Shown here piece by piece: positions 2,501 to 54,086 of a DNA stretch of 61,145 bases. The stretch is from a virus: positions 1 to 61,145 of the IMG/VR virus record IMGVR_UViG_3300045988_167077. One strand, given 5' to 3'. Each line of letters opens with the position of its first letter. The stretch's first letter is position 1. The notes below the pieces were generated by a model, which did not search any database, had not been told where the DNA came from, and was given only the letters and a program-made list of their open reading frames with translations. The position numbers and the translations under genes are program-made.

Positions 2501-2588
2501 CACCGCCTGTCAGGCAGGTCAGGACAATCGAATATCGGCCTGTTCCCAAGTTCGGCGGATGCCCGGGATGCCTTAAAACAGGTACGAA

Positions 2589-3062
2589 ATGAAAAACGAA
2601 ATATCAACAAGGTTTATGGCTCTTCTCCGTGAGAGGATAGACAACGAGACGGGTCAGGCAATCATAACCAAAATGGTCGGTGCGATGGACGGTAACCGGT
2701 GCGAGACCATTGTGGAGGAATGCGAAGACATGGTACGGTTCCGCAATTACCTTTCTGAAGACGAAGCAATGGACGTCGTCCGGAAGTTCATGAACTTCGA
2801 CGGTTCACGAGGTCCGCACTGGAGCAAGCCGGAAGACGCTTTCAGGGCTGTCCAATCCCTGGGGCTCCAGTATGAGGCGGACGGCGGGTATAACCGTTGG
2901 GCATTCTTTGTGGTGCTCAATATGGTCTGGTCGGACGAATGGGGCGTGCTTCATAACTACGTTTCTCCGGATCAGGAGGTCCGTGTCTGTGCGGAGCTCG
3001 CGCAGGCCAAGCTGGAGGATGTGGACAAGGTCTTCTCCGTGCGCAAGTATTTTGGAGTATGA
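2589..3062 (+). CDS. Hypothetical protein
   Basis: 157-aa ORF with coding-like composition, followed by a strong hairpin. Confidence 0.6.
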   Translation: MKNEISTRFMALLRERIDNETGQAIITKMVGAMDGNRCETIVEECEDMVRFRNYLSEDEAMDVVRKFMNFDGSRGPHWSKPEDAFRAVQSLGLQYEADGGYNRWAFFVVLNMVWSDEWGVLHNYVSPDQEVRVCAELAQAKLEDVDKVFSVRKYFGV

Positions 3063-3089
3063 TCTTCATGTCCGGAACGGTCACAGTTT

Positions 3090-3670: not shown

Positions 3671-4153
3671 ATGGAGAGAAAAAAGACAATATGTATCGAC
3701 TTCGACGGAGTCATCGCCGACTATTCGGACGGATACCAGGGCGAGGACAAGTTCGGGGATATGGTCGTGAATGCAGACATAGGCACGCAGATCCTCAAGA
3801 AAAAGGGGTGGCGTATCATAATATATACTACACGCCCAGTGACCGAGGCGCTGAAGAAGTATCTTGCCGACAACAAGATTGCCTATGATTATATCAACGA
3901 GAATCCTGACCAGCCTAAGGGCAGCGACATCTCCAAAGGATGCAAGATTGCCGCTGATGTATATCTGGACGACCGTGCCGTATCGTTCCGCGGAAACTGG
4001 GAATGGACTGTCAACGACATAGCATGGTTCCAGCCATGGAGCAAACCGAAGGATGACATGAAGAAGAAAATGGAGAAGTCGTATGACGAGAACGACATCT
4101 GGAAGAGGGGCGGCGAGAAACGCACAAAGGCAGTAGGCTGCAGCAACACATAA
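3671..4153 (+). CDS. HAD-superfamily phosphatase (5'-nucleotidase / Pnkp-phosphatase-like)
   Basis: N-terminal ICIDFDGVIADY (DxDxV motif I), IIIYTTRP (motif II-like) and DVYLDDRA (motif IV). Confidence 0.7.
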   Translation: MERKKTICIDFDGVIADYSDGYQGEDKFGDMVVNADIGTQILKKKGWRIIIYTTRPVTEALKKYLADNKIAYDYINENPDQPKGSDISKGCKIAADVYLDDRAVSFRGNWEWTVNDIAWFQPWSKPKDDMKKKMEKSYDENDIWKRGGEKRTKAVGCSNT

Positions 4154-4159
4154 TAAGAT

Positions 4160-4645
4160 ATGGCAAAGAAGCAGATACCGATAACATTGCGCCTGGATGA
4201 CATCATGTATGACATCCGGAACAAGACATACGTGGTAGGCCGCAGCAAGGACACGGGTGAAAATCCGGAGCAGGTGGCCGGCATCCAGGCAGATGACGAG
4301 CCGGAAAGTCTCAACCAGATATTGAGGAGCATCGGAACTGCCTTTGCGTCAGTCCGCATGCAGCTGTCGAAGTACATTGACACCGTACAGACTTCAGGAG
4401 ACAACGCGCAGTTTGAGGGGGACTCCGACTTGGATCTGGTCCTCAATCTCCCGGACAACTTCGACGAGACGGCCATAGACGTGCTCTCCAGTTCAATGCA
4501 CAACTACATCGTCAACACAGCGATTGCGGGGTGGTTCTCACTGACGAACCAGGAAGAGATGGAGAAATATGTGGAACTCGCAAGAAGCAACAACATCCAG
4601 ATGATGAAGGCGCTTCATACCAGGAAACGACCAGAAAGACCATAA
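4160..4645 (+). CDS. Virion-associated small protein, paralog family member 2 (C-terminal RKRPERP tail)
   Basis: 161-aa ORF. N-terminal LDDIMYDIRN, central acidic region, YIVNTAIAGW motif, C-terminal TRKRPERP. Confidence 0.6.
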   Translation: MAKKQIPITLRLDDIMYDIRNKTYVVGRSKDTGENPEQVAGIQADDEPESLNQILRSIGTAFASVRMQLSKYIDTVQTSGDNAQFEGDSDLDLVLNLPDNFDETAIDVLSSSMHNYIVNTAIAGWFSLTNQEEMEKYVELARSNNIQMMKALHTRKRPERP

Positions 4646-11770: not shown

Positions 11771-12123
11771 AGTCTTTCAAAATAAAATTTACCATCCCAT
11801 TTTTGCTCCGTCAGAATCCCGAGCTTGAGCGCCAGCCGCGTGGCGAATGTCCGCTTGTAGTCAAGTTCCTTTTGCAATCTTCGCCGGAACTGCTCAATCG
11901 TATACATCCCCTTGTAGAAGTTGCACATGCGACAAGAAGGGTTGTAATTCTCGATACTGTCCTTTCCCACACCACCCAAGTGCCTTTCCGCCGTTGTCTC
12001 GTTGTTCCGGCACTTGGGCTTGATGTGGTCAACCTGCATATCCTTATAGTCAATCTCGCAGCCGCAATAGGCGCAATGGCCGTTGTACTTCGCATAGACC
12101 GCCTGACGGATATTCTTGTTCAT
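11767..12123 (-). CDS. HNH endonuclease
   Basis: CAYCGCEI...VDHIKPK...NYNPSCRMCN is the classic HNH zinc/His-Asn-His layout. Overlaps both neighbours by 4 nt. Confidence 0.85.
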   Translation of the reverse strand: MNKNIRQAVYAKYNGHCAYCGCEIDYKDMQVDHIKPKCRNNETTAERHLGGVGKDSIENYNPSCRMCNFYKGMYTIEQFRRRLQKELDYKRTFATRLALKLGILTEQKWDGKFYFERL

Positions 12124-12587
12124 TTGACTTTTAATTTTTTAATTATATCCTTATACATATTGTAAGTTTCAGTAATGACTTTTTCGCCAATCGGATTTTC
12201 TCTCTTTGAATCCCGTTCAATACATTCTTCTAAAGAAACATCAAAGAAGTCCTTAAATTCGAGAGTGTAACGTTTTTTTAGAACTTTACCAAAAACACCT
12301 CGATTAAAGTTATCTATTTTGGCTTGAACAACAGTCCAATTCCAATCATTAAGATTCATATTGTCTATAACAATATTATACCCAAAGAGCATCGCCTTAC
12401 TGAGGAACTCCAACCTTGATTCGGAAACAAGATGCTCTCTTTCTGGCACCCAATAAAGCCCCAACATTCTACGGAAATCATCATTATTCCAACGGACTCT
12501 ATGTGTAGGGTCTTCTTCGACCCATTTCTTGGCCCAGGTAGATTTACCTGAGCCTGGAATTCCTCTCCTTAAAATTATTTTTGGCAT
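12120..12587 (-). CDS. Polynucleotide 5'-kinase (T4 Pnkp kinase-domain-like P-loop protein)
   Basis: MPKIILRRGIPGSGKSTWAKKW...NNDDFRR...VIDNMNLN parallels the T4 Pnkp N-terminus (KIILTIGCPGSGKSTWA..NRDDYR..SDTNLN). The ORF opens at 12602. Confidence 0.8.
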   Translation of the reverse strand: MPKIILRRGIPGSGKSTWAKKWVEEDPTHRVRWNNDDFRRMLGLYWVPEREHLVSESRLEFLSKAMLFGYNIVIDNMNLNDWNWTVVQAKIDNFNRGVFGKVLKKRYTLEFKDFFDVSLEECIERDSKRENPIGEKVITETYNMYKDIIKKLKVK

Positions 12588-13093
12588 AAATCCTCCCACC
12601 ATTTATAATAATCAGGGCAATCCTTTTCAGTATTAACTAGGTGCATGGTCTCATCGTTATATGGTATGCATCTTTGCCAAATATAACTTATGAACCCAAT
12701 TAGTACCACGGCACCAGAACCGTCACTAAATTTTTTAAATTCTTCAAGAAAGCATGGTGTCCATTCCTTAGAATTGCAACCAAGTCCTTTTACTAATACT
12801 TTATCAAACGGCTTAAAGTCTTTCGGGTCAAATCTCTTGACAGGAGTCCTGAACTTGCTCCAATCCAACTGATCTTTAGATGGGAATAATAAACACACCT
12901 TGCAAAATGAAAAATAATTACCCCCTTTATAAAAAGACCACGTGCAACCACCATGTGTTCCTAAAGCTACGACAATTTTTTCATTCGTTTGATCAACCTC
13001 TCTAAGATAGACATCGCCAAGTAGAGTGGAATATAATTTAGTTCCAATCGGGCAATCCTTCAGTATTTTACACAAATCTAAATTTTCATTCAT
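12575..13093 (-). CDS. Hypothetical protein (shares the VLV...CIPYN module with 14001-14663)
   Basis: 172-aa ORF. C-terminal FDKVLVKG...QRCIPYNDETMHL. Confidence 0.55.
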   Translation of the reverse strand: MNENLDLCKILKDCPIGTKLYSTLLGDVYLREVDQTNEKIVVALGTHGGCTWSFYKGGNYFSFCKVCLLFPSKDQLDWSKFRTPVKRFDPKDFKPFDKVLVKGLGCNSKEWTPCFLEEFKKFSDGSGAVVLIGFISYIWQRCIPYNDETMHLVNTEKDCPDYYKWWEDLCQK

Positions 13094-13096
13094 ACT

Positions 13097-13462
13097 CTAT
13101 TTTCCTTTTTTGTCTTCTGCAATGCTATCCAAATATCTATTGAGCGCCTCTATGGCCTTATCAGGGATTTCTTTGACTTTGGAGTCGCCTTCGCAATAAT
13201 CCAAAATGGTTCCTGCTCCGTAGATAAGATATAACTCTTTTTTATTAGGAGTTAGGATAGTACATAAAGCGAAAACCAATGCACAGATCATGTAAAATTT
13301 GCACGTATATGATATACTCTTGGAGTCTTCATCTACATCTCCCTCCCCCAATATTACGAAGGCGAGAAATAAAAGACTAACTCCGATACTTACCCCAAAC
13401 GCTATGTGCAGTTTGCCTACCACACTAATCCAATATAATTCGTTCATGATTATTCCTCCCAT
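13097..13462 (-). CDS. Small membrane protein
   Basis: 121-aa ORF with two hydrophobic helices (ISVVGKLHIAFGVSIGVSLLFLAFVIL and MICALVFALCTIL). Confidence 0.5.
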   Translation of the reverse strand: MGGIIMNELYWISVVGKLHIAFGVSIGVSLLFLAFVILGEGDVDEDSKSISYTCKFYMICALVFALCTILTPNKKELYLIYGAGTILDYCEGDSKVKEIPDKAIEALNRYLDSIAEDKKGK

Positions 13463-13845
13463 TCAATTTTAATTGTAGAAATATAGTTTTCACATCTTTT
13501 ACCCTTAGCTTCTGCTTCTTCTTTTGAATCATAGACTACCACTTCACCAGTTTGCACACACCCAGACTTGGTTTTGTATATGTTTATCCATCCCTCTTTT
13601 GGAGCAAAGAATAAATCTACGTCGCTATCGCTCTTGCGACGTTGTCTACCTTCTGGAGTAAAAGTCAGAACCGCCTCTGTTTTGCCTATTTCGTCATCGC
13701 ATTCAATCAATGCTACAATAGGATAAGGACTATCAACGCCTACACCTTTTCTGTCCGTGCAAATAACTCTTGCATTACGACCCTCGCGCGTTACGATTTT
13801 TCGGTCTGGATTCTTAAGGTATTCCTGCAAATCAAATTGCTTCAT
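13450..13845 (-). CDS. Hypothetical protein
   Basis: 131-aa ORF. Confidence 0.5.
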   Translation of the reverse strand: MKQFDLQEYLKNPDRKIVTREGRNARVICTDRKGVGVDSPYPIVALIECDDEIGKTEAVLTFTPEGRQRRKSDSDVDLFFAPKEGWINIYKTKSGCVQTGEVVVYDSKEEAEAKGKRCENYISTIKIEWEE

Positions 13846-14000
13846 AATCTCTATTTTTACATTTCTTGATTCTCTCTATCCGGATGATTCGCCCAATCCT
13901 CATGTCTTTTGCAGAATGGTTGAACTTCGCAAAGGTGCAGAAATACTCCGCGAGGTTCGGGCTTATCTTCCGGACGTACATCCATCGGCATTTAGCGCAA

Positions 14001-14663
14001 TCAGTGGCTTTCATTGTTGTCGACTGCCTTATAATCATCAGTAGTCATAAGCAGCATCCATGTCTTTTCGTTGTAAGGAATACACTGCAAGTACACAGAA
14101 TCCTTGCACTCGTACTTGTACGTGGCATTTTTGTTGTAGTGGTCAAAGATGCGGACGCGCCATCTTGCGTGAACCTGATTACGAACCAGCACCCTGTCAC
14201 CCCTCGTGAACGGGCACTTCTCCTCTTCTTCTTGCACAGCTAGCAACTCCTGCTCGTAGTCCGTGAGGACGAGCCTTGCTCCACTGCAGGAGAATAGTTT
14301 GTCTGTGCGACCTGTCAAGAAACCACCATCAGTGATTGCGAAGAAAAAGCCATTGTCCTCCACGCGGATTTCGAATACACTGCCGTCTTTCAGGAATCTG
14401 TCACCCACTTTCCAGTCCTGGTATGTTTCCGGATCTCTCGGGATGATTTCAAGGCCCCTTTCATTCAGATAGTAGTCGGCATGCTCTCTGTTTCTGAGTC
14501 CTGTCAATAACTCAAAATGTGGCACAGGTCTATTCAAATCCCATCCTCTCTTTTTGTCTGAATACAAATACAACTCCTTTATAGGACTGACTTTGACAAA
14601 TCCCGTAGTCCCATCTTTCAACCTGAAATTAAGGTTGTCACATTTTTCCAAATCGCACTTCAT
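14001..14663 (-). CDS. Hypothetical protein with internal LKDG repeats and a C-terminal VLV...CIPYN module
   Basis: 220-aa ORF. RLKDGTTGFVKV / FLKDGSVFEIRV duplication; C-terminal GDRVLVRN...LQCIPYNEKTWML. Confidence 0.55.
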   Translation of the reverse strand: MKCDLEKCDNLNFRLKDGTTGFVKVSPIKELYLYSDKKRGWDLNRPVPHFELLTGLRNREHADYYLNERGLEIIPRDPETYQDWKVGDRFLKDGSVFEIRVEDNGFFFAITDGGFLTGRTDKLFSCSGARLVLTDYEQELLAVQEEEEKCPFTRGDRVLVRNQVHARWRVRIFDHYNKNATYKYECKDSVYLQCIPYNEKTWMLLMTTDDYKAVDNNESH

Positions 14664-14754
14664 AATTACTTCCTGTTTTTGTCGTTACTGTCCAATGGCA
14701 GCGAAAACATCGTCAATGCTATCGCCACGATTGCTATTATCAATACTGTTTCCA

Positions 14755-14931
14755 TCATTTGTCGTTTTTAAGAGTCTCAAGGAATCCGAGAACCTCACCG
14801 AAAGCGTTTGCCTTGCCTAGGTAATAGTCCCTTAAAGATTGCCGATTCTGTTTGTTTTCGGACGCTTCCTTGCAACTCTTTTCTCCTCGTTCGATAAAAT
14901 CTATGAGGAGAGATAGCCTTCTGTCTTCCAT
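14755..14931 (-). CDS. Possible small protein (58 aa, below the ORF-track cutoff)
   Basis: Hand translation gives MEDRRLSLLIDFIERGEKSCKEASENKQNRQSLRDYYLGKANAFGEVLGFLETLKNDK. It fills an otherwise empty gap in the operon. Confidence 0.3.
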   Translation of the reverse strand: MEDRRLSLLIDFIERGEKSCKEASENKQNRQSLRDYYLGKANAFGEVLGFLETLKNDK

Positions 14932-15019
14932 AACATCTATTCCTTGAAATCAAACTTTGCAATGTCCTCGTCCCCGAACCTGGAGCCCTTCTTCAGCCTG
15001 CTCCTTTGATATAGTCAAC

Positions 15020-25529: not shown

Positions 25530-25847
25530 TGTTGCCTCTATTCATAACGATTGCGGATGCCAAGTAGTCTTAGAATGTAAGTTGTTTTGTTCCTATTTTG
25601 TTTCCCAAGACGAACTAATCAAGAAGTTGGAAAACAAGTAAGGTTCTTGCATATAATTAAAACACAATCAATTAACGCCATTCATCTAAAGCGAAAATGA
25701 GGGACTGAAATCTTAAGTTAATTTTATTTCTTGTAATACTTAGAAATCGCTAATTTATGCTCTGTATTGCGGGTTTTTATCGGATAGGCGTTGTGTATTA
25801 ATGTGTTAGGAGATACTATTGCCATACTTTTGTATTACTTTATACGA

Positions 25848-25913
25848 GTTATTTTTGTTCCTAGTTTGTTTCTTTTGGATTCTTTTTGTTATTTTTGTTC
25901 CTAGTTTGTTTCT
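25848..25913. repeat. Two exact 26-bp direct repeats spaced 40 bp apart, immediately upstream of the integrase start
   Basis: gttatttttgttcctagtttgtttct at 25848-25873 and 25888-25913. A degenerate third copy lies at 25581-25605. Confidence 0.85.
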
Positions 25914-25920
25914 CTGGAGT

Positions 25921-27231
25921 ATGAAGAAAGATGACATTAAACAGCCCGTGAGGCTAAGGGAAAAATCCCTGAAGAACGGAGTGAAGTCACTCTACCTTGA
26001 CATCTATCAGGATGGGCAAAGACGTTATCAGTATCTGAAGCTTTATATTAATCCTGGGACAGATCCGCTTACTAAGATGAAGAACAAGGCTGCTATGGAT
26101 GCCGCACGCGTAATCCAGGCAAGAAAACTTGTGGATCTGCAGTCAAGCATGGCGGACATCATGACTGCCAGCAGTCGCAGAATCAAGTTCGTGGATTATT
26201 ACCGTGAATATTACGAATCGAAGTACGATATCTCCAATAGCAGTAGAAAACGTGCAAATCATGCGCTGAACAGATGGATTGAATTCGCAGGTAAAGATGT
26301 GCTCCTTTGCAAGGTTACTTCTGAAATGCTGAGTGGCTTTGTCAAACATCTAAAGTCGTCGGTCTGCATGCACAAATGCCGAAAGGTGTCGATTTCTGCA
26401 GGTGAAGGGCGAGAGAAAAGTTTCATCCTTACGTCAGATGCAGAAAAACTCATACGGAAAATGGCTTGCGTGCAGAAAAAAACGGTTGAACAGATAGCAA
26501 AGGAAACAGGTATCAGCGAAAGCACCATTAAACATGCATATAAACGAATCATTGCAGGCCAAGAGGATAGGCGTCTGGCAGAAACAACAGTTCATATTTA
26601 CTTTATTACCGTAGCGGCGGTTTTACATAAAGCATACCGCAAAAGGCTGATACCGTCTGATCCTGCAGATATGCTTGACAGAGCGGAGCGCCCGGGTGGG
26701 CGCTCCGCGGAGAGGACTTATCTCACATTTGAGGAAGTCACTAAGATGATAGATACGGCGTGCTGCTATCCTGTGGTGAAGAACATGTTTTTATTCTCTT
26801 GCTTTACAGGCTTGCGCTACTCGGATGTAAAGGCCCTCACATGGGGAAAGATTGACGACAGCATGATAGGCACGACTATGCAGAAAACAAAGGAGCCTGT
26901 ATATGTACCGATCAGCAATAATGCCAGGAGGTGGTTGCCGGATAGAGGAGATGCGCAGGGGTCGGATTTCGTTTTCAGCGGTATGCCTACCGCGTCGGCT
27001 GTAAATAAATGTATCGACAAGTGGACGAAGGAAGCAGGCATCGATAAACATGTCACTTTTCATTGCGCCAGACACACATTCGCTACGCTTTCGTTGGAGT
27101 ACGGCGCTGATTTGTATACCATCAGCAAACTTCTGGGGCATCGAAACATTGCGACCACCCAGATATATGCCAAGATTATGGATGAAAAGAAGGTGGAGGC
27201 GGTGAACCTCATTCCTGATCTAAAAAAATAA
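25921..27231 (+). CDS. int: Tyrosine recombinase / integrase (Bacteroidota phage-integrase type)
   Basis: N-terminal arm-binding pattern VRLREKSLKNGVKSLYLDIYQDGQRRYQYL. Catalytic residues in GLRYSD, HCARHTFATL and LLGHRNIATTQIYA. ATG at 25921 is preferred over TTG at 25819. Confidence 0.9.
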   Translation: MKKDDIKQPVRLREKSLKNGVKSLYLDIYQDGQRRYQYLKLYINPGTDPLTKMKNKAAMDAARVIQARKLVDLQSSMADIMTASSRRIKFVDYYREYYESKYDISNSSRKRANHALNRWIEFAGKDVLLCKVTSEMLSGFVKHLKSSVCMHKCRKVSISAGEGREKSFILTSDAEKLIRKMACVQKKTVEQIAKETGISESTIKHAYKRIIAGQEDRRLAETTVHIYFITVAAVLHKAYRKRLIPSDPADMLDRAERPGGRSAERTYLTFEEVTKMIDTACCYPVVKNMFLFSCFTGLRYSDVKALTWGKIDDSMIGTTMQKTKEPVYVPISNNARRWLPDRGDAQGSDFVFSGMPTASAVNKCIDKWTKEAGIDKHVTFHCARHTFATLSLEYGADLYTISKLLGHRNIATTQIYAKIMDEKKVEAVNLIPDLKK

Positions 27232-29745: not shown

Positions 29746-32700
29746 ATGAACGACAATAAGAGAAAATTATACGATGCCCTGTCGAATGACTATGACATGG
29801 GTACATACGAGCAGTTCAGAAAGGACCTCGAGGACAAGGACAAGAGACGGAAATTGTACGATGCGACCAGCGACGCGTATGATTTCGGCGATTATGACCA
29901 ATTTGAGGCGCAGCTGGGCTATGGTCAGTCTCAGTCCGCTCCAAGTGCAGAGGAAATCAATTCAGGCAGTGCAGGTCCTGTCATGCCGAAGCCGGCCATG
30001 GAAAACAGGAACTGGGAGGTACAGATGGGGAACGGCCACAGCCGTGCGACCGTGGAAAAGCCTGAACCTGTAGATGTGCCCGTTCCGCAGAGACCTGAAG
30101 GCCAGGAGCCGTCTGATGATGGGACCGCGGCTTCTTCTGGTGATGTGAGGTCATATCTGGAGAATGCCAACAGACAGCAGGTAGCCAACCTCAGCAGGGA
30201 CATCAGCTCACGACTGGATGAGGCGCAGACGAAATCCCGTGACATATATATGAAGGAACAGGAAGACGCACGCAAAGGTGGATTCCTGTCGACACTTGCA
30301 CATGCCATTGCCGCGTCCGGCCATAATCCTGAAGGCAGGTCCGGAGGCATGTCCGATGCCCAGCAGAGGTCACTTCAGGGCGCGAACAGCGAACTCCAGA
30401 GCGAAATATCCAAACTGGAGGCTGCAAAGAAGGCGATGAGCAATGCCGAAGAGATTATAGCCGAGGCAGACAAGAGTGTCCAGGAAGGCAAATTCCCCGG
30501 CTTTTTCAAAGGCGTAGCACGCGGCTTCGGAGACAAGCTGTTTGACGTCAACACGTGGGACATGGGAGTGTCAGACACGAAGAACAGCATCGAACTGCTT
30601 AAGGCCCTCAGGAAGTACGATGAGGGAAAGCCGCTTTCGGAATCCGAGCAGATGCTTCTGGACGCGAAGTCGGTGGAACTCGCCACGAATGCCTACTTCG
30701 GTTCATACATAGGCAGGGGATACAAGGCGGGAGCCGTGACGGCACAGAGCCTGCCGTTCATGTTGGAGATGGCGGTCAACCCGGCCAGCACCCTTGGCGA
30801 ATCCACACAGAGCATGCTGGCCAGGTATGCGCTGTCGAGGTTTGCGAAGAAAGGAGCGACCAGGGCCGCCCAGAAGTTCGCTACAAAGGCTGCAGGGGCT
30901 GCAGGACGCGCCTTGGGTGACATAGCCGGTTCAGCTGTCATGGCAGGGACATCCGGCGCTGTCCGTGTGGCCGGTGACGCCATCGACAGGCATGTCGGTG
31001 ACATCAAGACTGATATGGACGGGCAGGGACAGACCGTATTTGCAGGTCATGACCCAGAAAGCCTCGGGAAATCGATTGCAAAGGCATTCACGTCAACTGC
31101 AATAGAGAACCATTCCGAGATGCTGGGCGAATACTTCGCTCCGGCTCTCGGCATCGTTTCCAAACTCGGCAGGAAGGGCATGGAGAAGTTCGGCCTGAAG
31201 AATGTCGTGGATTTCGTTGACGATGTCAGTGCGACTGACGCCGCCAAGCTCATAGCGGATTTCCAGAAGCGCACCAAGTGGCACGGAACCATCGGAGAGT
31301 ATGCGGAAGAGGTCGCAGGCAACATTGAGAATGCCATTCTTGTCGGAGACAACACTTTGGACGCGTCGGATGACACCGGAGTGTTCAATCTGGACCAGAA
31401 CATCGACACGTTCCTGGGCGTGGCCCTTATGGGAGGAGTATTCAGTACGGCCCGTACTATCGGGTGGCGTACTCCAAAATACAGGGCTAGGATGGAGATG
31501 GAGGAGGCCCGTAATAAGGCAAGGACGAAATACGGAAGTGAGGCATGGCAGGAGATTGAGGACAGGATGGCGGAAGCCGGGGACTCCGGCATGTCGGCCG
31601 TATTGTCCACTGTGATTGCCGGCGAGAACAGTCCTGAGAAGGCAAAGGCCCTGCTGGACTATGCGAAGAGCATCAAGAAGTATGAGGGTATGCTGGCGGG
31701 AGATGAGAAGCGCAGGGAGATTGCGAGCCCGGAGGCGACGGATCTGGAGACTTCCTATGAGAACGGCTATACGCTTTCGACGCCGCAGGAAGTGCATGAC
31801 GCGAAACTGATGTTCGAGTATCAGGAGGCCATGCTCCAGAAGGCGCTGGGCACTTCCGACATTGATATCGACACAATTATGCTCGGCAATGAGATGGGAA
31901 CGCTTACGGACGAGCAGAAGTCAGTAGCCATGGACTATCTCAATGCCAAGGCCACATTTGACGGCGTCATTGACAGGGTGAGGGATGACATCGACAGCAG
32001 GATTTCTTCCGTGGAGAATGCCATCGACGCGAGCACGAACAGGGATACCGGAATGCTGCAGCCTGCAAGTCTTGTCGACGACAGGCCTGTCCACATCATT
32101 TCGGGAATCGTCAGGCTCACTCCTGACGGGACGATGGTGGACACCAGGAACTCTGAGAACTTCATAATCGTCCGTGACGACAAGACCGGCAGGATGGAGA
32201 CCATTTCTCCTTCAGACATAAACCGTCTTGAGAATGAGATAGACCCGTCCATGGAGAAACAGGCGGCCAGACAGCAGATCCAGGATGTCTATGGCGGCCG
32301 TGAAGCTGACAGCATCGACGGCGTGCTTGCCTTCAATCCTGGCGACACATACACTCTGACCAATGGGCAGGGGCAGTCTTTCCCTGTTCAGATTGTGGCC
32401 AATGAACAGGGCGTGGCTGACAACGGTGACGGAACCGTCAATGTCATCCTCAATAATGACATTGACACCCAGACCGGGCAGCCTCGTATCACTCAGATGC
32501 CTAAAGAGCAGATCCAGGAGATGGCGGAGGCCACCAACCTGTCAAGACTGCAGCAGTACGAACAGCAGAAGCTTGCCAGGGCAGCGGAACAGGCGGAAAC
32601 GGATGCGACAGGGAGGACACCTGAGAATCCTTTCAGAATCAATGACAGGATCACACTGTCTGATGCGGAGACCGGCAAGGTGGAGAACGGAGTGGTCGGT

Positions 32701-35700
32701 TCGGAACTCACGGATGACGGCAAGTATGAGGTCGTCGTGGAGAAGCAGGACGGCAGCCAGTCCATACTCTATCTGTCTCCAAGTGAACTGGAACAGCTTG
32801 GCGCCAGACTGGAACAGCCGGAGGCCGTGGAAGAACGGAATGCTCCGGTTTTGGAACAGAATCAGCCGGTTTTGGAACAGAATCAGCCGGTTTTGGAACA
32901 GAAGACAGAGAAGGCCGAGCAGGAGTCTGCGATGTCACGCATACCTTTAGACAGGGATGGAGTGCCGCAGTTCGAGCAGGCTCAGCCGTCTGACACGTGG
33001 GAGGCCCTTCTTGAACTCAACAGCGGCAATGCCGTAGAGGCGGAGGATACCGCAAGGCAGATGTATGAAAACGCATCGAAGAATCTTGACAAGGCCCAGA
33101 AGACCAAGCCGAAATCCGGCACTTCAGTGATGGAGATCCAGAGGAACAAGGCTGAGCGCAACGGGCAGATAGACGAACTCCGGAAGTCCGTGGATTTCTG
33201 GGGCAAGGTCCTGTCATTCCCTGAGGCTGTGAGGAAGTCGGCAAGTGCAGCCGCAGAGGCAGAGGTTCGACAGAAAGAGGACGCGAAGAGGGAGGCAGTA
33301 CGACAGGCAAAAGAGAACCTGGCCAAAGGGCGCAAACTGATGCAGCAGAAGGGAACGTATTATAAGGATGACGCCAAACTCGGCGATTATCTGGATTTCC
33401 ATGATTATGCGCTGCGTATGATTGCCAATGGACGCGTGAAGTTCGTCTGGAAGAACGATGCCGACAACAACTCGATAAAGGGGCTTGGCGGACATCTCGG
33501 TCTTGAGGACAGCGAATCGGAGAGAAAGGCTCTCTTCAGTCTCCTGGCAAACCAGGATAAGGGCGGATTGCGTCCTGATGACGCCGCGGAACAGTTGTCG
33601 GAGGAATACAATTCAAGTCTGGGCGCCGAGGTAATCAGTTCTTCTGAGGCCCTTGATGTCATTCTTGACATTATTCGCACTTATGGCGGCAAGACCCGCG
33701 ACATGATGAATGCCGCCATTGACGCACATGCAATGGCCGGTATGGACGAGAGGGGCCATGATGAAGACAACAAGTCTTCTGAGGACAAAGATAATTCAAA
33801 GATTGCTGAAGGCCAAGAATCTCTTCCTGCAGATGCTCCATTGAGCAACGAGATTAATGAGTTCGGGGTTCCTTTCATCGAGTCTTCGGATGGAACAACC
33901 GTTTTTGGCGTATTGACTGACGACAGCGGTTTGTCTCCTGCTCCTATCAAATTAAGCCTCGGAGAGAATGCCGCAGATAAAAATGGCACCAATCATGGTT
34001 ATGGCTTGCTTCATATTGAAGCAGGACATGGGGACCAGATACGTGCAGCAGGTTATTCTTCCATCAAAGATTTCGTTGAAGATGTGGCCCGCAATTATGA
34101 CACAATCCGCGAAGGTGGAATTGTTGCAAATAATCAAACGTATCTGCTGGAACTCTCAGATGAGCACAACAACACATTGTTTATCCAGTTGTCACGGGAT
34201 GGCAGCTATTGGAACATAAACAGCGCGGGTATTTTCAAGAAGAAATACTCGCGCCGTAAGCCGGAAGTCTTTACTCGACCCGCATTGAAGACCGAAACTG
34301 ACACCGATTCCGGTAGAGTTGATAGCAGCCGTTTTAGTGGTGCAACTGCGCCAGCAGGAAACTCTCATCAGACTTCTGAAGGCAAAGATACAAATATTTC
34401 CGAAGAAAGCAACACGGGCTCTGAGAAATCTGTGGCAGAGCAGATTACGGAACAGAGAGAGGTCGTGAATACGGAGCCGACTGAGGCGCAGAAGGAAGCC
34501 GGCAACTACCGCATGGGGCACGTCAAGATAGACGGAATGGATGTCACCATCGAGAACCCTAAGGGCAGCATCCGGAGAGGTACTGATGCGGACGGCAAGA
34601 AGTGGGAGTCTGAGATGCACTATGACTATGGTTATATCCGCGGCACAAAGGCTGTGGATAACGACCACATCGACATATTCCTTTCTGACAACCCGGAGAC
34701 TGGGAACGTCTTTGTCGTCGACCAGGTGAACCCGAAGACGGGAGAGTTTGACGAGTCCAAGGTGATGTATGGTTTCGCTTCTGAGCAGGAGGCCAGGGAC
34801 GCTTATCTTTCGAATTACGAAAAGGGCTGGAAGGGTCTCGGCAAGATTACTGAGGTGACCAGGGAAGAGTTCAAGAAATGGATTGAATCATCCACGAGAA
34901 AGACAAAGCCGTTCTCGGAATATGCAAGTGTGAAAGTTGCTGAGGCGCAGAAGGAGAAATCCATTCAAGGACTTGAAGGATACTCGCGTGACGAGATCAA
35001 AGGCATTGTGACAGATCATATCAACGATGTGATGAGGGACTATGATATTGATGCGGAAATAATCGGCATGGATATTCATGGATCCAGGAACCGTCATGAC
35101 GCCAGACCGGACTCTGACTTGGACGTAGTTGTCGAATATAGTGGCGACATCCGGGAGGACGACATGTTCAATGCGCTTAACGGCGAGGAGGATGCGCTTT
35201 CGATTGAGGGAATCAAGGTCGATATCAACCCTATAAGAAAAGAGGAAACTGGTGACCTCCAGGACTACATGAAGCAGTCGGAAGAGTATGACAGGGAAAA
35301 GAGTTCTGCTGACAACCAGGGCAATCCTGTAAATGAGGACAGCACTCCTGCTGGTCGTGCCGTCAAGGAAGAAGAAAAGCCGGCAGAGGTTTCCGCTCCT
35401 GCTGAAACCGAGACCCCAAAAAACGAGGGTGCATTTGGTCTTGTCAGCGATGATAGAATGGCAGAACTGAAAGAGAGACTGCGCAAGAAGTTGAGCGGTC
35501 AACTCAATATGGGCATTGACCCGGAAATTCTTGCTATCGGTATGGAACTCGCAGTAGGGCACATTGACCGAGGTGTCAAGACCTTTGCGGACTTCTCCAA
35601 GAAGATGATTGAGGATTTGGGCGATGTTATCCGTCCATACCTCAAAGCCTTCTACAATGGCGCACGAGACCTGCCCGAAGTAATAGAGAGTGGTCTTTCT

Positions 35701-41700: not shown

Positions 41701-44700
41701 CTGAAGCAGGTGGAATCCCGCGAGGGCGTTCCTTTCGAATATGCTGCGGAATTAGAGCAGGCTCGCAATCAGTATGAAGAGTATTCTGAACTGATGAAAA
41801 AGGAAATGGAAGAAAAAGAAGCCAAGTATGCTGAAATGGATAAAGATGTAGAAGCTGCTTCCGACATTTCCACTTCCGAAGAAGATGATGATGACGATTT
41901 AATGAGAGCCAGCGATACTATGTACCGCATCCGTGAAAGTGCTGCTCCCACTATAGGCGTAGGGCTTGATGTCGAAGCTGCAGCGGAAAGGCTTGCGGAA
42001 AGCCTCGGTGAGAGGGTGCGTATTGTCCGCGATGTCAATGAAATTGAGAACCAGAATAAAAATGTCCAGGAGAGCCAGAGGAAATCGAAGGGTTGGTTCA
42101 ATACCAGAACCGGAGAAATCGTCGTCGTCCTTCCGAATGCAACCGGCATTGAAGATGTCCAGGCTACAATCCTGCACGAGGCTGTGGGCCACAAGGGCTT
42201 GCGTGAACTCGTGGGAGATGACAGGTTCGATGACTTCCTGGATAAAGTGTATGCGGCTGCTACGAAGGCTACCAGATTGGAAATCGTCAGTCTCGCAAGA
42301 CGCAACCATTGGGATTTCAGGCTTGCGACTGAAGAGTATATTGCGGGCTTGGCTGAGAAAGGTTTCTCCGGGCGCGAGAACAGGACATTGTTCGGGAAGA
42401 TCAAGGATTTCTTCCTCGATATGTTGAGCAGGGCAAAGATTGCGCTGGGCTTCAATATCGGGGACAACGAACTGCGCTATATGCTGTGGCGGACATATCA
42501 GATGCGGACTTCAAGAGGTATTCTTGCGAAGGCCAATGACATGGCCGTCCAGCAGGAGCTGAAGGTCGGAAACTTCAGGGAGGATAATTCAAGTCCTGTA
42601 TCCTTCCTTAAACAGATGCAGGACAATGCGGAAACGCTGGTGCCTCGTCAGTTGACCAAAGAAATCTGGGACAATGAAATAAAAGGAAAGGTCTTCAGCA
42701 CTCCAATAGGTGTTGTAAAATTGGGCGAGAACCAATATGAAAAGAATATCAAGAAGGGTCGCGAACTTGAATTCGGCATGTTGATTCCTACCATTGAACG
42801 TCCTGATGCAATATTCGAAGAGGATGCTCCGGAGGCTGGCGCAGAAAGACAAACAAAGTATGTCTTTGTGAAATCTTTCGTTGAAAACGGAGTCAAGAAG
42901 ATAAACTACGCATCGGTTTCAGTAAGGAAGGACGGGATGGAGGTCGTTGCCAGCAGCCACTATCTTCGTGACAAACAGATGCTGAATAAAATAGAAAAAG
43001 AGCGAATGCTTTGGAACCGTTTCGCAAGCGGTTCTGAACTTTCGGCACAAGGCGGCTCGACAGCTCAAAGCAATGCTCTTTCTCTTGACGCAAATTTACT
43101 AAAAGGAGTCAAGAAAACAAATTCCGACGAGGAAATATTGTCAGGTGATGATTCAAGACTCCGTTTCAGGACCTCCGGTAATGGCGGAAGCAGCAACACT
43201 GCTCGGGACATTTACGAGGAGAAGACCCGCGTGATAGACAGAAACGGACGGAAGTCAGACACGGCCAACCTTATGCGCCGTCTGAAGGAAGCCTATGTGG
43301 ATAGCATGCAGTCTCTGAAATACCTCCAAGACGCTATTTCGGAAGAAACCGGGAAGCCTGTGGAAGACTTCGAGAACGCATACCTGGCGGAGAACTCAAT
43401 GAGTTCAAAGAACAAGGCCCAGACTGACATTTATCTGAACAGGTTCTTCAATCCTATAAAGGACGCTATCCGTGACCTCCAGAAAGAGGGAGCGGAATAT
43501 GGAGACATTGTCCGCTACCTCATGGCGAAACACGGACTCGAGCGAAACGAGGTCTTCTCAAAGAGGGATGCCGAGAAAGATGGAGGCGTCTGGGACGGTT
43601 CAGTCAGACGGGACTACTCAGGTCTGACCGAACTCACCAGAAGGGATACTGATACCGTCGCGCCTAGAATAGACGAGATCACCTCGCGAGCTGAGGATAT
43701 CGTCCGGAAGTTCGAAATGGACCATGATACGGATGTCCTGTGGGAAAAGATAAATGCCGCCACGAAGGACACCCTCCGGACGTCATATATAACGGGAATG
43801 CTCACGAAGGACAACTATGAGATGGTCCGTTCCATGTTCAGATACTATATCCCGTTGCGGGGATGGAGCGAGAATACGGCTTCGGCGGTGTACGACTATC
43901 TGAGCGATGCGAGACCGAAGACGTCATCCATAGTGAAGGCGGCTACCGGAAGAACCACCATTTCTGATGATCCGATTGCGACCATTGCCTATATGGGACA
44001 GAGTGCCATTATCCAGGGCAACAGGAATCTCATGAAGCAGAAGCTGCTTAATCTGGCTCTCAACCACAAGACTGGCCTCCTCACCGTAAGCAGGCAGTGG
44101 GAAGTGCTGGACCCTGTGACGGGAATGTGGACTCCAAGGGACCCGGATATTCCGGCCGACGCTGCCCCAGAACAGGTGGCTGACATCGTCGCCGACTTTG
44201 AGAAGGACATGAAGGAGGCGGAAAAGAAAGGCGTCGCAAGGCTCTCGAGGGGAAAACTCGATACCGGCAAGCATCTCACTGCCTATGAGGGACAGGAGCA
44301 TATCATAAAGGTCAAGCGTGGCGGGATTGATTACAGTATCTATCTGAACGGCAACCCGCGTGCAGCCCAGGCTGTCAACGGCATGACCAATCCTGATGCT
44401 GTGGACAGCTGGCTGATCCGCAAGGCCAGGGTCATAAAGAATTTTATGGCCAGGATGTTCACGTCCCAGAATCCGGCGTTCATAATATCGAACCTGAGCC
44501 GAGACGTCATTTTCGCAGGAACTGCCGTATATGCCAAAGAGGATGCGAAATATGCCGCAAGGTATGCGAAGAACATTACTGTGGCTCTGGCCAAGGGACA
44601 GCTGATAGGCCTGATCCACAGGTTCGAGACGGACAGGCTTGACAACTCGAAAGACCTGGACAGATATTTCGGAGAGTTCATACGCAATGGAGGAGAGACA

Positions 44701-46192: not shown

Positions 46193-48178
46193 ATGTCTGA
46201 CGATATAAGACGAAAGAGCCGCGTTAAGCCGCGGGATATAAGCGAGATGGATACTGTTGCCTTTTCAAAAAACCTGGGCGACAGCAGGCGTGCCTTTGAC
46301 ATCGTACTCGAGGCACAGCAGCATTACGACAACATGCGGCGTTTCCGCGAGGACAGGGAACGTTGCAAGCGATATACTTACGGTGATCAGTGGAAAGACA
46401 TCATTACGGTCGATGGAAAACAGATGACCGAAGAGGAATATATCAAGGGCGAGGGGCAGGTCCCTTTGAAAAACAATCTCATCAGGAGACTTGTCCGGAG
46501 CGTGCTCGGCGTCTATCGCAGCCAGTCAAAGGAACCGACCTGCAGTACGCGTGACAGGAACGAGCAGAAGCTGGGTGAGATAATGAGTACGGTGCTGCAG
46601 TGCAACATGCAGAGGAACCGTATGAATGAGATATATCCCGAGTCGCTGGAGGAATTTCTTATTAGCGGTCTTGTCGTGCATCATAAGAGCTTCGGATGGA
46701 TATCTGACAAGGGACTTGACTGCTGGACGCGTGTCGTTTCTCCGGATATGTTCTTTATGGATGCTTATTCGAGGGATATCCGCGGCTGGGATATCAGTTT
46801 TGTCGGAGAAATCCATGACATTGACTTCAATACACTTGTCGGACAATTTGCGCATTCGCCTGAAGACTACAGGCGTCTAGCCGATATATACTCTTCAGCT
46901 CATGCGAGAAACAGAGGCTTTGTGGCTACATTCTGCAATGAGTTCGGACATTACAGACGTTCTAACATTGATTTTCTCGTTCCTCAAGACATAACACGTT
47001 GTAGGGTGATAGAGGTCTGGAGAAAAGAGAGTAAACCACGCTATCGGTGCCATGATTATGCGGACGGAAGTTTTTACAAGGTGGAAGTCAATGATTACCA
47101 GGCGATGGTGGAGGACGAGAATACCAGAAGAATACAGAAAGCGACGAGTCTTGGAATCCCGAAAAGTGACGTCGCTCTCATCGAAGGCGAATGGAAGATG
47201 GACGAGTATTGGTATTACTATTACCTGACACCTTTCGGAGATATTCTGCAGGAAGGTGAGACGCCATATGATCATGGAAGTCATCCTTACGTGGTCAAGG
47301 CATATCCGTTCATTGACGGAGAGATACACAGCTTTGTTGCGGACTTCATAGACCAGCAGAGATATGTGAACAGGCTGATCACCATGTATGACTGGATAAT
47401 GCGCGCCAGCGCCAAGGGCCTGCTTATATTCCCGGAAGAGTGCCTTCCTGACGACTGGAACATCGAGGATGTGGCTGAAGAATGGCACAAGTTCAATGGT
47501 GTCATTGTTGTCAAGACTAAGAATAATCCTTCAGGCAAACTGCCTCAGCAGGTTGCCTCAAACAGCACCAACATCGGAATCTCTGAATTGCTAAACCTGC
47601 AACTCAAGTTCTTCGAGGATATCAGCGGTGTTAATGGCGCTCTACAGGGCAAACCGGGATATTCTGGTATCAGTGCGAGCCTATATGCCCAGCAGACTCA
47701 GAACTCCACAACCTCGCTGCTGGACTTGATGGAGAGGTTCAGTTCATTTGTTATCGATGCCGCATATAAGGACGTGAAGAACATCCAGCAGTTCTATGAT
47801 ACCAAGAGGTATGTGAACATAGCCGGAAAGGGCGGCGCGGAAGTGGTGTATGATCCTGACAAATTTGGTGGAGTTGAATTTAACCTCAGCATTGTTGAGA
47901 GCACTACATCACCGGTATACCGTGATCTGGCAAATGATTTCCTCATGGAGATATGGAAGTCCGGACAGATCAGTCTTGAACAGCTTCTTGAGCATGGAGA
48001 TTTCCGGTTTGCGGACAATCTCCTTCAGGATATCAAGGTCCAGAAGGAAGAACTTGCCAAAGGAAATGTCCCGGAGGGACTGTCCCCTCAGATGCAGAAA
48101 CAGGTGCAGGAAGGCGCCAACATGGGTGCCGTCAATACTTTGCATGATGCGATAAGTTCTGAGGCCATGAGAAGGTAG
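46193..48178 (+). CDS. Portal protein
   Basis: 661 aa. N-terminal RFREDRERCKRYTYGDQWKD (portal-type YxGxQW block). Its size and position beside the terminase operon fit a portal. Confidence 0.75.
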   Translation: MSDDIRRKSRVKPRDISEMDTVAFSKNLGDSRRAFDIVLEAQQHYDNMRRFREDRERCKRYTYGDQWKDIITVDGKQMTEEEYIKGEGQVPLKNNLIRRLVRSVLGVYRSQSKEPTCSTRDRNEQKLGEIMSTVLQCNMQRNRMNEIYPESLEEFLISGLVVHHKSFGWISDKGLDCWTRVVSPDMFFMDAYSRDIRGWDISFVGEIHDIDFNTLVGQFAHSPEDYRRLADIYSSAHARNRGFVATFCNEFGHYRRSNIDFLVPQDITRCRVIEVWRKESKPRYRCHDYADGSFYKVEVNDYQAMVEDENTRRIQKATSLGIPKSDVALIEGEWKMDEYWYYYYLTPFGDILQEGETPYDHGSHPYVVKAYPFIDGEIHSFVADFIDQQRYVNRLITMYDWIMRASAKGLLIFPEECLPDDWNIEDVAEEWHKFNGVIVVKTKNNPSGKLPQQVASNSTNIGISELLNLQLKFFEDISGVNGALQGKPGYSGISASLYAQQTQNSTTSLLDLMERFSSFVIDAAYKDVKNIQQFYDTKRYVNIAGKGGAEVVYDPDKFGGVEFNLSIVESTTSPVYRDLANDFLMEIWKSGQISLEQLLEHGDFRFADNLLQDIKVQKEELAKGNVPEGLSPQMQKQVQEGANMGAVNTLHDAISSEAMRR

Positions 48179-52661: not shown

Positions 52662-54086
52662 ATGAAGAAATTCAAAATTGGAAAAGTAATCCTATCGACG
52701 TTGCTGTCAGTGCTTTGCTTTATGCTTGGCGCTCAGTCAGGCGTCATGATGGCAGCGGCCAGCGAACTTCCTGATGCAGGAGTCACAGCTTCAGGTAATC
52801 CTGGTGATGGCGGCGGAGCAGGTATCGCAACGGAATCCGAAGGGCGCGAGGCTGGCGATCCGGAATTCTACTCAAAGGAAATCGACAAGCGAATCACGAA
52901 GATCCGCCCTATGGCGACACCTGTAGACCAGATTAGCCGTTATGCGAAATCTGTATCTACCAACAGCTTTGAAGTGAAATACTATTCAGTCGGTACCAGA
53001 CCTATCGTATGTACCACTTCAGGCGAGATTGCAAAGCAGACCCAGGGAGAATCAGTCTCACTGCCTGTCGATGACGCCAACATGTTTACTCTCGATGATA
53101 CCATCAGGGTAGTGGGCGTGAAGGGTGAGTTCGACTACACTGGTGCTGCCTACAACAAGAGTGACGAGAATACTCCTGACCTTGTGCTGAAGGTTTGCGG
53201 CAGGGATGCCAGCACTTCAATGCCGACCGTGTACGCGGTGAACGGTCTGAAGGATTCAACCGGCAGGACAATCTGGCTTCCGGCCATTCCTAACGGGACC
53301 AAGCTCGTGCGAATGGGCAAGGCATGTGCCGAGCTCAGCGTGCAGACCGGACGCTTCAACAACATTCCTACATCCGAGGTTCAGTACTGCCAGAACTTCA
53401 TGATTCAGGTTGAGCAGTCGACATTCGACAAGATTGCCAAGAAGGAAGTGGACTGGACATTCTCTGACCTCGAGGAGGACGGAATCTATGACATGAAGTT
53501 GGCTCAGGAGAATACCTATCTCTGGGGCGTCAAGAACGTCATCTCACACTCTACCAGCGACTCCATGAAGACATGGTTCACCGGAGGTATCTGGTGGATG
53601 GCAGGAAAGGATATCGAAGTCGGAACTTACGACGCCCAGACCAAGACGACTACAATCTCCGATGACAATCTTGTGGACATCGCAAAGGATCTGTTTGTCG
53701 GCACAGGTATCGGAAACAAGAAGAAGGTGCTTCTTGTCGGTTCTGACATGCTTGCCGCTTTCTCTAAGATCAAGAGTGAGAAATTCAGGCTCAAGGATAC
53801 TGTGGAGGTATGGAACCTCAAGTTCAAGTCCTGGGATACCGACTTCGGCGAGCTGCTCACAATCCATCACGAGCTGTTTGATGCGAACGGAATGAGCGAC
53901 TGCGGCTTTGCCCTGGATCCGGAGTATTTGACGAAGGCCGTACACGTGTCATGGTCAAGAAACATCCTCGACCTGAAGAAGGCAGGTGTCAGGAACACCA
54001 ATGCCGTAGTCATGCAGGAGGTTGCCTGTCTCTATCTGAGATATGCCAAGGCACATGCCAGAATGAGACTTGCACATGCAGCCTAG
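52662..54086 (+). CDS. Major capsid protein (HK97-fold type)
   Basis: 474 aa, following the scaffold gene. Contains the EFYSKEIDKRITKIRPMATPVDQISRYAKS block and is followed by a terminator. The N-terminal 30 aa look like a signal peptide, so the start is uncertain (alternatives at 52722, 52746 and 52749). Confidence 0.75.
   Translation: MKKFKIGKVILSTLLSVLCFMLGAQSGVMMAAASELPDAGVTASGNPGDGGGAGIATESEGREAGDPEFYSKEIDKRITKIRPMATPVDQISRYAKSVSTNSFEVKYYSVGTRPIVCTTSGEIAKQTQGESVSLPVDDANMFTLDDTIRVVGVKGEFDYTGAAYNKSDENTPDLVLKVCGRDASTSMPTVYAVNGLKDSTGRTIWLPAIPNGTKLVRMGKACAELSVQTGRFNNIPTSEVQYCQNFMIQVEQSTFDKIAKKEVDWTFSDLEEDGIYDMKLAQENTYLWGVKNVISHSTSDSMKTWFTGGIWWMAGKDIEVGTYDAQTKTTTISDDNLVDIAKDLFVGTGIGNKKKVLLVGSDMLAAFSKIKSEKFRLKDTVEVWNLKFKSWDTDFGELLTIHHELFDANGMSDCGFALDPEYLTKAVHVSWSRNILDLKKAGVRNTNAVVMQEVACLYLRYAKAHARMRLAHAA

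Follow-up and report, generated by a model that had tools for sequence, protein, structure and literature searches.

A predicted pyrophosphatase-nucleotidyltransferase pair that recurs in both orders in giant phage-type polyvalent proteins

Background

Why should a giant phage protein carry a domain resembling an inorganic pyrophosphatase (PPase) directly next to a minimal nucleotidyltransferase (NTase)? The question is raised by an open reading frame (ORF) of 5453 amino acids (aa) in the virus record IMGVR_UViG_3300045988_167077 of IMG/VR, which we analysed over a stretch of 61,145 nucleotides (hereafter the window). Positions 34483-35250 of its plus strand translate without a stop as residues 1580-1835 of this ORF. 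A sequence-only reading, made without database searches, had recognised in that translation the PPase-like blocks IENPKGS, YDYGYIRGT..DNDHIDIFL, EFDESKVMYGF and YEKGWKGLGKI and a following HGS-x10-DLD signature of NTases, all of which are present. It proposed that the two domains are functionally linked, possibly in making or destroying a nucleotide messenger or in nucleotidylating a host target, and knew of no precedent for the pairing.

Polyvalent proteins, the InPase domain and the minimal NTase domain of the DNA polymerase beta (Pol-beta) fold were all defined by Iyer et al. 2017 (PMC5512222), who described InPase as a trimmed, monophyletic form and suggested that it either degrades nucleotides induced by infection or clears pyrophosphate (PPi) that inhibits NTases and polymerases. 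In that survey InPase, like LPD38 and PBECR2, was restricted to phage-type proteins, and the Pol-beta NTase was restricted to proteins of conjugative elements, chiefly Firmicute ones fused to ArdC-N (PMC5512222). Our literature search for the pairing, for anti-defence roles of phage PPases and for DarB-like or polyvalent proteins in Bacteroides phages found nothing beyond that paper. The claim of novelty holds for the combination, which the 2017 survey does not list, and fails for its parts, since InPase in virion-delivered proteins and the ideas of PPi clearance and signal destruction had been published (PMC5512222). Both domains and the general notion of PPi clearance are thus already known; what we add is that the two domains recur as a cassette, that they do so with either one first, and that the supposedly conjugative-only NTase is present in phage-type proteins.

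Results

A trimmed pyrophosphatase-like domain with an intact metal-binding cluster

The first domain matches the InPase family PF18823 over the whole model (Table 1), with 197-204 bits against a cut-off of 26.8. A Foldseek search with its AlphaFold2 (AF2) model, which has a predicted local distance difference test score (pLDDT) of 92.4, returned only family I PPases, those of Mycobacterium tuberculosis and Escherichia coli among them, with a probability of 1.0 and an E-value of 3e-4 over about 158 aligned columns, at a modest template modelling (TM) score of about 0.45. In a profile search against PDB sequences and in an hhalign comparison, D1638, D1640, D1643 and Y1628 pair with D65, D67, D70 and Y55 of E. 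coli PPase, a correspondence given by the aligned block YGYIRGTKAVDNDHIDIF; E1603 is the equivalent of E20, as TIENPKG of InPase aligns with TIEIPKG of M. leprae PPase in the profile search. The hhalign alignment of the InPase family to E. coli Ppa spans only 24 columns, and D97, D102, K104 and Y141 lie beyond it; judged by their position on the strands, D1659 and D1669/E1670 would correspond to D97 and D102.

In the family alignment (A2), E1603, R1610, Y1628-G-Y1630, D1638, D1640, D1643, D1659, Q1660, D1669, E1670, K1672, Y1687 and Y1691 are invariant or nearly so. These include the metal-binding aspartates D1638, D1640 and D1643, whose loss would have spoken against a PPase fold in the sequence-only reading and which are all present and invariant, together with E1603, D1659, D1669/E1670 and K1672. 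The catalytic residues are invariant, bar one alignment gap, in the 62 two-domain proteins described below and nearly invariant in 222 proteins that carry InPase only.

With the cellular family I enzymes (E. coli Ppa, M. tuberculosis Rv3628; PF00719, EC 3.6.1.1) the domain shares the core, which is an oligonucleotide/oligosaccharide-binding (OB) fold, the YGYI-x6-D-x-D-xx-D block and the other metal ligands, whereas it is shorter (135 aa against 160-175 aa) and is without a stretch of some 10 residues in which R43 and Y51 of E. coli lie; in the profile alignment, M. leprae PPase has 10 extra residues between the third strand and YGYI. It also scores below the PF00719 cut-off (15.1 against 23.5 bits, over a 26-residue core block only). 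Among the basic residues that bind PPi, K1672 (the K104 equivalent) is invariant, the segment bearing R43 is missing, and K, E or D occurs at position 1693, near K142; the invariant R1610 may stand in for E. coli K29. By sequence and fold the domain is a trimmed family-I pyrophosphatase-like domain of the PF18823 polyvalent type, and PPi is its putative substrate.

Known PF18823 proteins, namely BcepF1 gp124 and the portal protein gp19 of the Pbunaviruses Pa193 and E217 (PDB 9b41), have the same trimmed fold, acidic cluster and virion-associated context, and differ from the window protein in that the latter has its InPase fused directly to a Pol-beta NTase. The window InPase matches the C-terminal domain of the Pa193 portal with an E-value of 2e-30 by phmmer and 4e-49 by family profile. 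The portal protein of Pbunavirus Pa193 ends in an InPase domain, which is therefore physically present in that virion; in 9b41 (Pa193 portal), the only PDB entry with an InPase sequence, residues 529-765, InPase included, had no density.

A minimal nucleotidyltransferase related to MNT proteins

The GS motif of the second domain lies 65 residues beyond the end of the InPase model, in keeping with the "about 60" first estimated. The motifs HG1779S1780-x10-D1791-L-D1793 and VD1826IN1828P satisfy the pattern hG[GS]-x9-13-Dh[DE]h with its third acidic residue. Scanned as a fragment, the domain exceeds the cut-offs of PF18765 (27.6 against 26.9 bits) and PF01909 (26.6 against 21 bits); scanned inside a 2500-aa piece, it falls slightly under both. 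A word-indexed protein search with a limit of E <= 1e-3 gave 122 homologues, the majority being solo proteins with lengths of 90-200 aa; all 30 that entered the alignment share GS, R, SDLD, F, D and N without variation. The catalytic residues are likewise invariant in all 62 two-domain proteins.

The AF2 model (pLDDT 93.5) has the order a-b-b-a-b-b-a, and the top 50 PDB matches in Foldseek are all Pol-beta NTases, including kanamycin NTase, AadA, poly(A) polymerase, CdnE/CdnC and MNT, at weak scores (E-values of at least 0.016, TM about 0.4). Among viral folds, Gp642 of Bacillus phage G, an uncharacterised protein of 101 aa, comes closest (TM 0.72/0.83), and the nearest profile matches among sequences of solved structure are minimal NTases, the MNT proteins 2rff and 1wot. 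The domain is by these sequence criteria an MNT-like minimal Pol-beta NTase with intact catalytic residues, and both of the original domain identifications are borne out, InPase by its full-length PF18823 match and the NTase by PF18765/PF01909, motifs and fold.

MntA is a protein adenylyltransferase. The MntA/MNT antitoxins (HEPN-MNT, type VII) resemble the window NTase in size and in the motif GSxxRG-x5-SDxD, give its best matches among sequences of solved structure and in NCBIfam, and offer in their PPi-releasing AMPylation of proteins a mechanistic model for it, whereas the strand and helix decoration differs and the structural similarity stays at a Foldseek TM of about 0.4. Assignment to the MntA antitoxin family itself (NCBIfam NF047752) was rejected at 20.5 bits against a cut-off of 60 and for want of a HEPN partner: Pfam finds no HEPN domain in the giant ORF, and none was seen beside five solo NTase homologues.

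A second candidate, a messenger synthase resembling the cGAS/DncV-like NTases (CD-NTases) of the cyclic-oligonucleotide-based anti-phage signalling systems (CBASS), is essentially excluded. The domain has about 110 aa against about 300 aa in the two-lobed CD-NTases and no acceptor lobe, its nearest relatives by sequence among solved structures are minimal NTases, and CdnE, CdnC and CdnG match it only in the shared core, with TM scores of about 0.2 relative to the target and E-values of at least 0.04. PADLOC returned no CBASS-type hit for the NTase, only a weak one to the candidate family PDC-S09. The suggestion that the pair makes CBASS- or Pycsar-type messengers accordingly finds no support.

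The two domains recur side by side in both orders

With the word-indexed search the pairing seemed to be unique, save for one fragment at 97% identity; neither query gave a hit longer than about 480 aa in that search, which overlooked all the giant homologues, even one at 89% identity. The apparent uniqueness was an artefact, overturned by an exhaustive phmmer search of 1.84 billion cluster representatives, which gave 12,326 proteins at E <= 1e-3 with giants (mostly 4,000-7,500 aa) matching both domains at the top. Among the best 147 representatives all 147 contain InPase and 45 contain the NTase too, which places the NTase in at least 45 of at least 3,722 strong InPase clusters, or roughly one to a few per cent. 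The didomain that the sequence-only reading had proposed to look for in other polyvalent proteins is therefore found in many giant phage proteins.

A second entry point is given by the NTase, which in a scan of IMG/VR seeded 42 loci, 35 of them in giant ORFs (>1,000 aa). InPase is present in 16 of the 35: seven have InPase abutting a following NTase, seven have the reverse order and also abut, one has a gap of 13-14 residues and one has about 150 residues between the domains. The 13-14-residue case consists of two near-identical loci, counted together in the pooled arrangement classes. Pooling gave 62 two-domain proteins, with InPase first in 29, NTase first in 19 and the domains separated in 14. 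After single-linkage collapse at 70% domain identity the domains are adjacent in 26-27 of 39 lineages; by our own estimate, made for about 25 domain-sized slots and not from a computed null, random adjacency would be about 8%. A neighbour-joining (NJ) tree of the NTase, short and without support values, mixes forms with InPase first, NTase first, no InPase and NTase alone, and this interleaving suggests repeated rearrangement.

The 62 proteins have 40-60% overall identity despite their invariant catalytic residues. Parts of the giant ORF are common to cluster representatives of 4,000-7,500 aa, and many representatives resemble the window protein in the two-domain block and nowhere else. InPase and NTase thus behave as a mobile two-domain cassette. 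Across 80 species-representative genomes, InPase followed by NTase was found at one locus only, in a 4551-aa ORF with MuF_C of a Prevotellaceae metagenome-assembled genome. The pairing is enriched but optional, and most of the cases found here come from uncultured viral contigs and from sequences associated with Bacteroidales.

The linker behaves as a recombination boundary

The linker between the domains is short, about 12-25 residues (aa 1715-1739 with the InPase tail included), and in the 11 proteins with InPase first in which the spacing was measured, 109-121 aa separate FDExK from GS. Two close relatives, P0252 and P0258, have an InPase 81-88% identical to that of the window and the same tail, RKTKPFSEYASVK.TEAQ (also SSTRKTKPFSEYASVK.TEAQ), and continue with unrelated modules right after "EAQ". 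Since divergence after this point is complete, the linker behaves as a module-exchange (recombination) boundary.

On the other side, just upstream of InPase, positions 33763-34485 (aa ~1340-1580) hold an unannotated module containing NHGYGLLHIEAGHGDQIRAAGY, which has no Pfam match and is 53-55% identical to differently placed segments in the giant proteins P0245, P0260, P0262 and P0271; its sequence and distribution mark it as a further mobile, uncharacterised polyvalent-protein domain.

Each domain also has other settings

Among the 80 species-representative genomes, a narrower alignment (A3) located the NTase mostly in Lachnospiraceae ORFs of 1,100-1,850 aa. Three of these, analysed with Pfam, contain YodL, LPD16, the NTase and DUF4316, with ArdC-N in two and a metallopeptidase (MPTase) in one. 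They belong to the conjugative family of Iyer et al. (PF18765; ArdC-N-MPTase-YodL-LPD16-NTase-DUF4316), and their NTases are 40-46% identical to that of the window, with the common motifs GSRxRG...SDLDVVVEY...VDINP. The window copy differs in its setting: it stands in a phage-type Bacteroidales protein with LPD38, PBECR2 and a portal neighbour, follows InPase and not LPD16, and has no ArdC-N. In all three Lachnospiraceae proteins (L101, L104, L077) LPD16 precedes the NTase with about 60 residues between the Pfam matches, in the same place as InPase in the phage proteins; LPD16 may be the usual partner or substrate-binding module of the NTase.

Solo NTase homologues (loci L001-L003, L004-L006, L130-L131, L133-L135 and L136) lie directly downstream of, or overlap, varied genes. 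These are DpnI in three contigs; an N6-methyltransferase (N6-MTase) and ThyX in a 298-kb phage-like contig; a 5-hydroxymethyldeoxyuridine (5-hmdU) DNA kinase-like gene (PF18723) in a 155-kb phage-like contig; a Phd antitoxin and an unknown gene of 105 aa; and a relaxase, in a conjugative element of Herbinix whose other genes include ThyX and dUTPase. The contexts may reflect a recurring link to DNA- and nucleotide-modification genes.

The giant ORF lies in the virion module of a probable Bacteroidales phage

Pfam matches in the giant ORF comprise LPD14 (aa 451-571), InPase, the Polbeta/NTP_transf_2 domain (aa ~1771-1839), SNF2/Helicase_C, PBECR2 and a C-terminal LPD38. Its InPase stretch matches PHROG 10089, "DarB-like antirestriction", a label that relatives of the protein carry in PHROGs and RefSeq. 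A motif scan adds an NVPF methylase-like motif and a HEAVGH (HExxH) motif, the latter in a block at aa ~4080-4280 shared with many representatives, which is probably a zincin-like processing peptidase of polyvalent proteins. Pfam gives no match in aa 1340-1580, 1850-2330 and ~2331-3065, nor in the HExxH block, so that the methyltransferase and peptidase assignments are motif-based only. Two minus-strand ORFs overlapping the region (34192-34668 and 34888-35562) would be spurious, lying as they do inside a strongly supported plus-strand frame. The ORF also contains peptide repeats at 32839-32901 (aa ~1032-1052; NAPVLEQ, then NQPVLEQ twice) and an N-terminal duplication at 29758-29916, with (K/R)RKLYDA.S..YD.G.Y.QF at aa 5-28 and 34-57.

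The portal gene begins 86 bp after the end of the giant ORF, an adjacency that places the latter in the virion module, and terminase-like and major-capsid-like genes are near. This gene position, together with the analogy of the InPase-bearing Pa193 portal, makes it probable that the giant protein is carried in the phage head and is injected along with the DNA. The tyrosine integrase indicates a temperate phage or prophage. According to the BF1-TP2 annotation, the gene layout is syntenic with that of the temperate Bacteroides phage BF1-TP2, which has at the corresponding position a 3633-aa ORF with InPase, ADP-ribosyltransferase (ART), PBECR5 and LPD38 and without the NTase. In the word-indexed search the nearest named fragments to the two-domain query come from Prevotella and Alloprevotella, and one IMG/VR viral contig is 97% identical across the NTase; megablast of the region against GenBank phages gave no match. 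Because LPD14, InPase, NTase, SNF2, PBECR2 and LPD38 are combined in one ORF with portal, terminase and capsid genes nearby, and because the BF1-TP2 layout and the Prevotella/Alloprevotella relatives agree, we regard the product as a phage-type polyvalent protein of a Bacteroidales prophage or phage.

DarB of phage P1 is, like the window protein, very large and encoded in a virion module, with an SNF2 helicase and a predicted methyltransferase (by motif only in the window protein). DarB is packaged in the head, whereas packaging of the window protein is deduced from the neighbouring genes. To our knowledge, P1 DarB has neither InPase nor the NTase.

Elsewhere in the window, a 671-aa ORF (18029-20044, minus strand, opposite to the virion module) combines an N-terminal exonuclease-like part (PHROG 1218/69) with a C-terminal FtsK/SpoIIIE-like ATPase (PHROG 1358). 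The plus-strand ORFs 4656-7427 and 52662-54086 match, at full length, phrog_32516 (E 7e-252) and phrog_26635 (E 3.5e-257), both of unknown function and the second weakly similar to major head proteins; close relatives of the phage are therefore already in PHROGs v4. The GC content falls to 0.41 in 12001-15000, against 0.50-0.56 elsewhere, and GC skew is strongly negative across 9-18 kb; the low-GC part may be a mosaic or recently acquired segment.

Table 1. Positions of the InPase-NTase pair and of related features in the window
Feature	Position	Strand	Evidence and details
Tyrosine integrase	25819..27231	+	PHROG 1, E 3e-55
Giant polyvalent ORF, 5453 aa	29746-46107	+	Single open frame; Pfam domains; PHROGs label "DarB-like antirestriction"
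InPase domain, aa 1580-1714	34483..34887	+	PF18823, model 1-135/135, E 1e-58 to 1e-60; family-I-PPase-like OB fold
InPase catalytic cluster	34552..34761	+	E1603 (34552), Y1628/Y1630, D1638 (34657), D1640, D1643 (34672), D1659 (34720), D1669/E1670 (34750), K1672 (34759)
InPase C-terminal tail (RKTKPFSEY) and short linker ASVKVAEAQKEKS	34888..34962	+	Tail motif conserved in the family
Minimal Pol-beta-fold NTase, aa 1740-1850 (IQGLEGYS to YDR)	34963..35295	+	PF18765, PF01909, alignment A1, AF2
NTase catalytic residues	35080..35223	+	G1779-S1780 (35080-35085), D1791/D1793 (35116-35124), D1826 (35221-35223), N1828
HEAVGH (HExxH) motif	42175..42192	+	Motif scan; block at aa ~4080-4280
Portal gene	46193..48178	+	PHROG 156, E 2e-85

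Discussion

The reading that we favour, tentatively and with a rough probability of 0.45, is that the pair forms an MNT-like nucleotidylating effector rendered irreversible by the fused PPase. After entry of the packaged protein with the DNA, the NTase would soon move a nucleoside monophosphate, probably AMP, from a nucleoside triphosphate (NTP) to a macromolecule, most probably a protein of the host, and free PPi; InPase would hydrolyse this PPi locally, relieving product inhibition and blocking the reverse reaction, so that the modification would become effectively irreversible. Were the polyprotein to be cut by its putative HExxH peptidase, both domains would probably end up together on a single fragment, given the short linker between them. 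The recurrence in both orders is suggestive, though not proof, of cooperation between the two enzymes. The functional link proposed in the sequence-only reading thereby gains some comparative support, tempered by the facultative nature of the pairing.

Several observations weigh against this proposal. InPase occurs in 473 GenBank phage records, about 294 of them Pseudomonas phages with Pa193-type portal fusions among them, and the NTase stands beside it in none of the 473. Conversely, in about 19 giant viral ORFs InPase is absent and the NTase stands next to ddrB-ParB, ART-PolyVal, PBECR3, PBECR5 or LPD3, and the Lachnospiraceae conjugative proteins have LPD16 before the NTase in place of an InPase. 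The near-identical InPase of P0252 and P0258 is followed, after the same linker, by unrelated modules in the NTase position. Furthermore, the adjacency counts are phylogenetically non-independent, and the NJ tree is poorly resolved. With the R43-bearing segment absent and the K142 equivalent unconserved, PPi may not be the preferred substrate of InPase. Finally, host cells have a cytoplasmic PPase of their own, so that a fused one is not obviously needed. As each domain is widespread alone, the coupling would be an optional enhancement.

The main alternative, which we consider less likely, is that the domains are independent effectors inherited together as a cassette, InPase with a role of its own (for instance PPi clearance aiding early phage nucleic-acid synthesis) and the NTase with an unrelated target, neighbours only through recombination at the linker and copying of the two-module block. 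Both domains are far commoner apart than together, the boundary in close relatives falls exactly at the linker, InPase-portal fusions do without the NTase, and the other neighbours of InPase (LPD13, PBECR1/2/3, ART and kinase domains) do not release PPi. Simple co-inheritance of a single block does not, however, predict an adjacency that persists through inversion of the order and across unrelated backbones, nor direct abutment in 14 of the 16 viral ORFs.

It is quite improbable, in our view, that the pair is instead a nucleotide-signal or metabolite module, in which InPase would cleave a nucleotide-like phosphoanhydride (an alarmone, an ADP-ribose-type signal or an NTP-derived product) and the NTase would act on the same small-molecule pool. 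Loss of the R43 loop and variability at the K142 equivalent could open the pocket to larger substrates, solo NTases lie beside ThyX (twice), dUTPase and the 5-hmdU DNA kinase-like gene, and related InPases have NUDIX, GNAT and TmrB genes as neighbours according to Iyer et al. The PPase metal cluster and the K104 equivalent are fully kept, however, and the NTase has no nucleotide-acceptor lobe, matches CD-NTases weakly and gives no CBASS-type PADLOC hit. We know of no signal-degrading activity among family I PPases.

We also think a role in DNA-directed anti-restriction very improbable. Here the NTase would nucleotidylate either the phage DNA on its entry, at the ends or at modified bases, or a protein bound to DNA, and would act together with the predicted methyltransferase and the SNF2 helicase, InPase assisting. 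The DarB-like SNF2 helicase (Pfam) and the NVPF motif of the same ORF and the solo homologues beside DpnI, N6-MTase, ThyX and the 5-hmdU DNA kinase-like gene speak for it, whereas no nucleic-acid-binding domain is attached to the NTase, its sequence affinity is to MNT-type NTases (MntA adenylylates proteins) and not to polymerases or CCA-adding enzymes, and the gene-neighbour support is anecdotal, from five contexts that are all different.

A more specific form of the irreversible-nucleotidylation reading, argued by analogy with MntA/HepT, is a long shot: the cassette would be a dedicated "irreversible AMPylation" weapon with kinetically coupled domains, delivered with the DNA, that adenylylates host defence proteins, for example at the catalytic sites of HEPN-family abortive-infection RNases. 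If this were true, it would be an injected broad-spectrum antitoxin or anti-defence module shared by phages and conjugative elements.

Conclusion

Polyvalent proteins are thought to be the first enzymes that a phage or plasmid deploys in a new host, and hardly any of their domains have been tested. The InPase-NTase cassette, at about 280 residues, provides a compact and expressible candidate with a falsifiable mechanism, nucleotidylation driven by a fused pyrophosphatase, and its recurrence, whichever domain comes first, lends comparative support to an idea that has been speculative since 2017. In addition, an NTase classed as exclusive to conjugative elements proves to be widespread in Bacteroidales phage proteins. 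Should the two domains be independent, the pair would simply add another architecture to a protein class already known to be heavily shuffled; should the target of the NTase be a host defence protein, it would represent a new anti-defence strategy.

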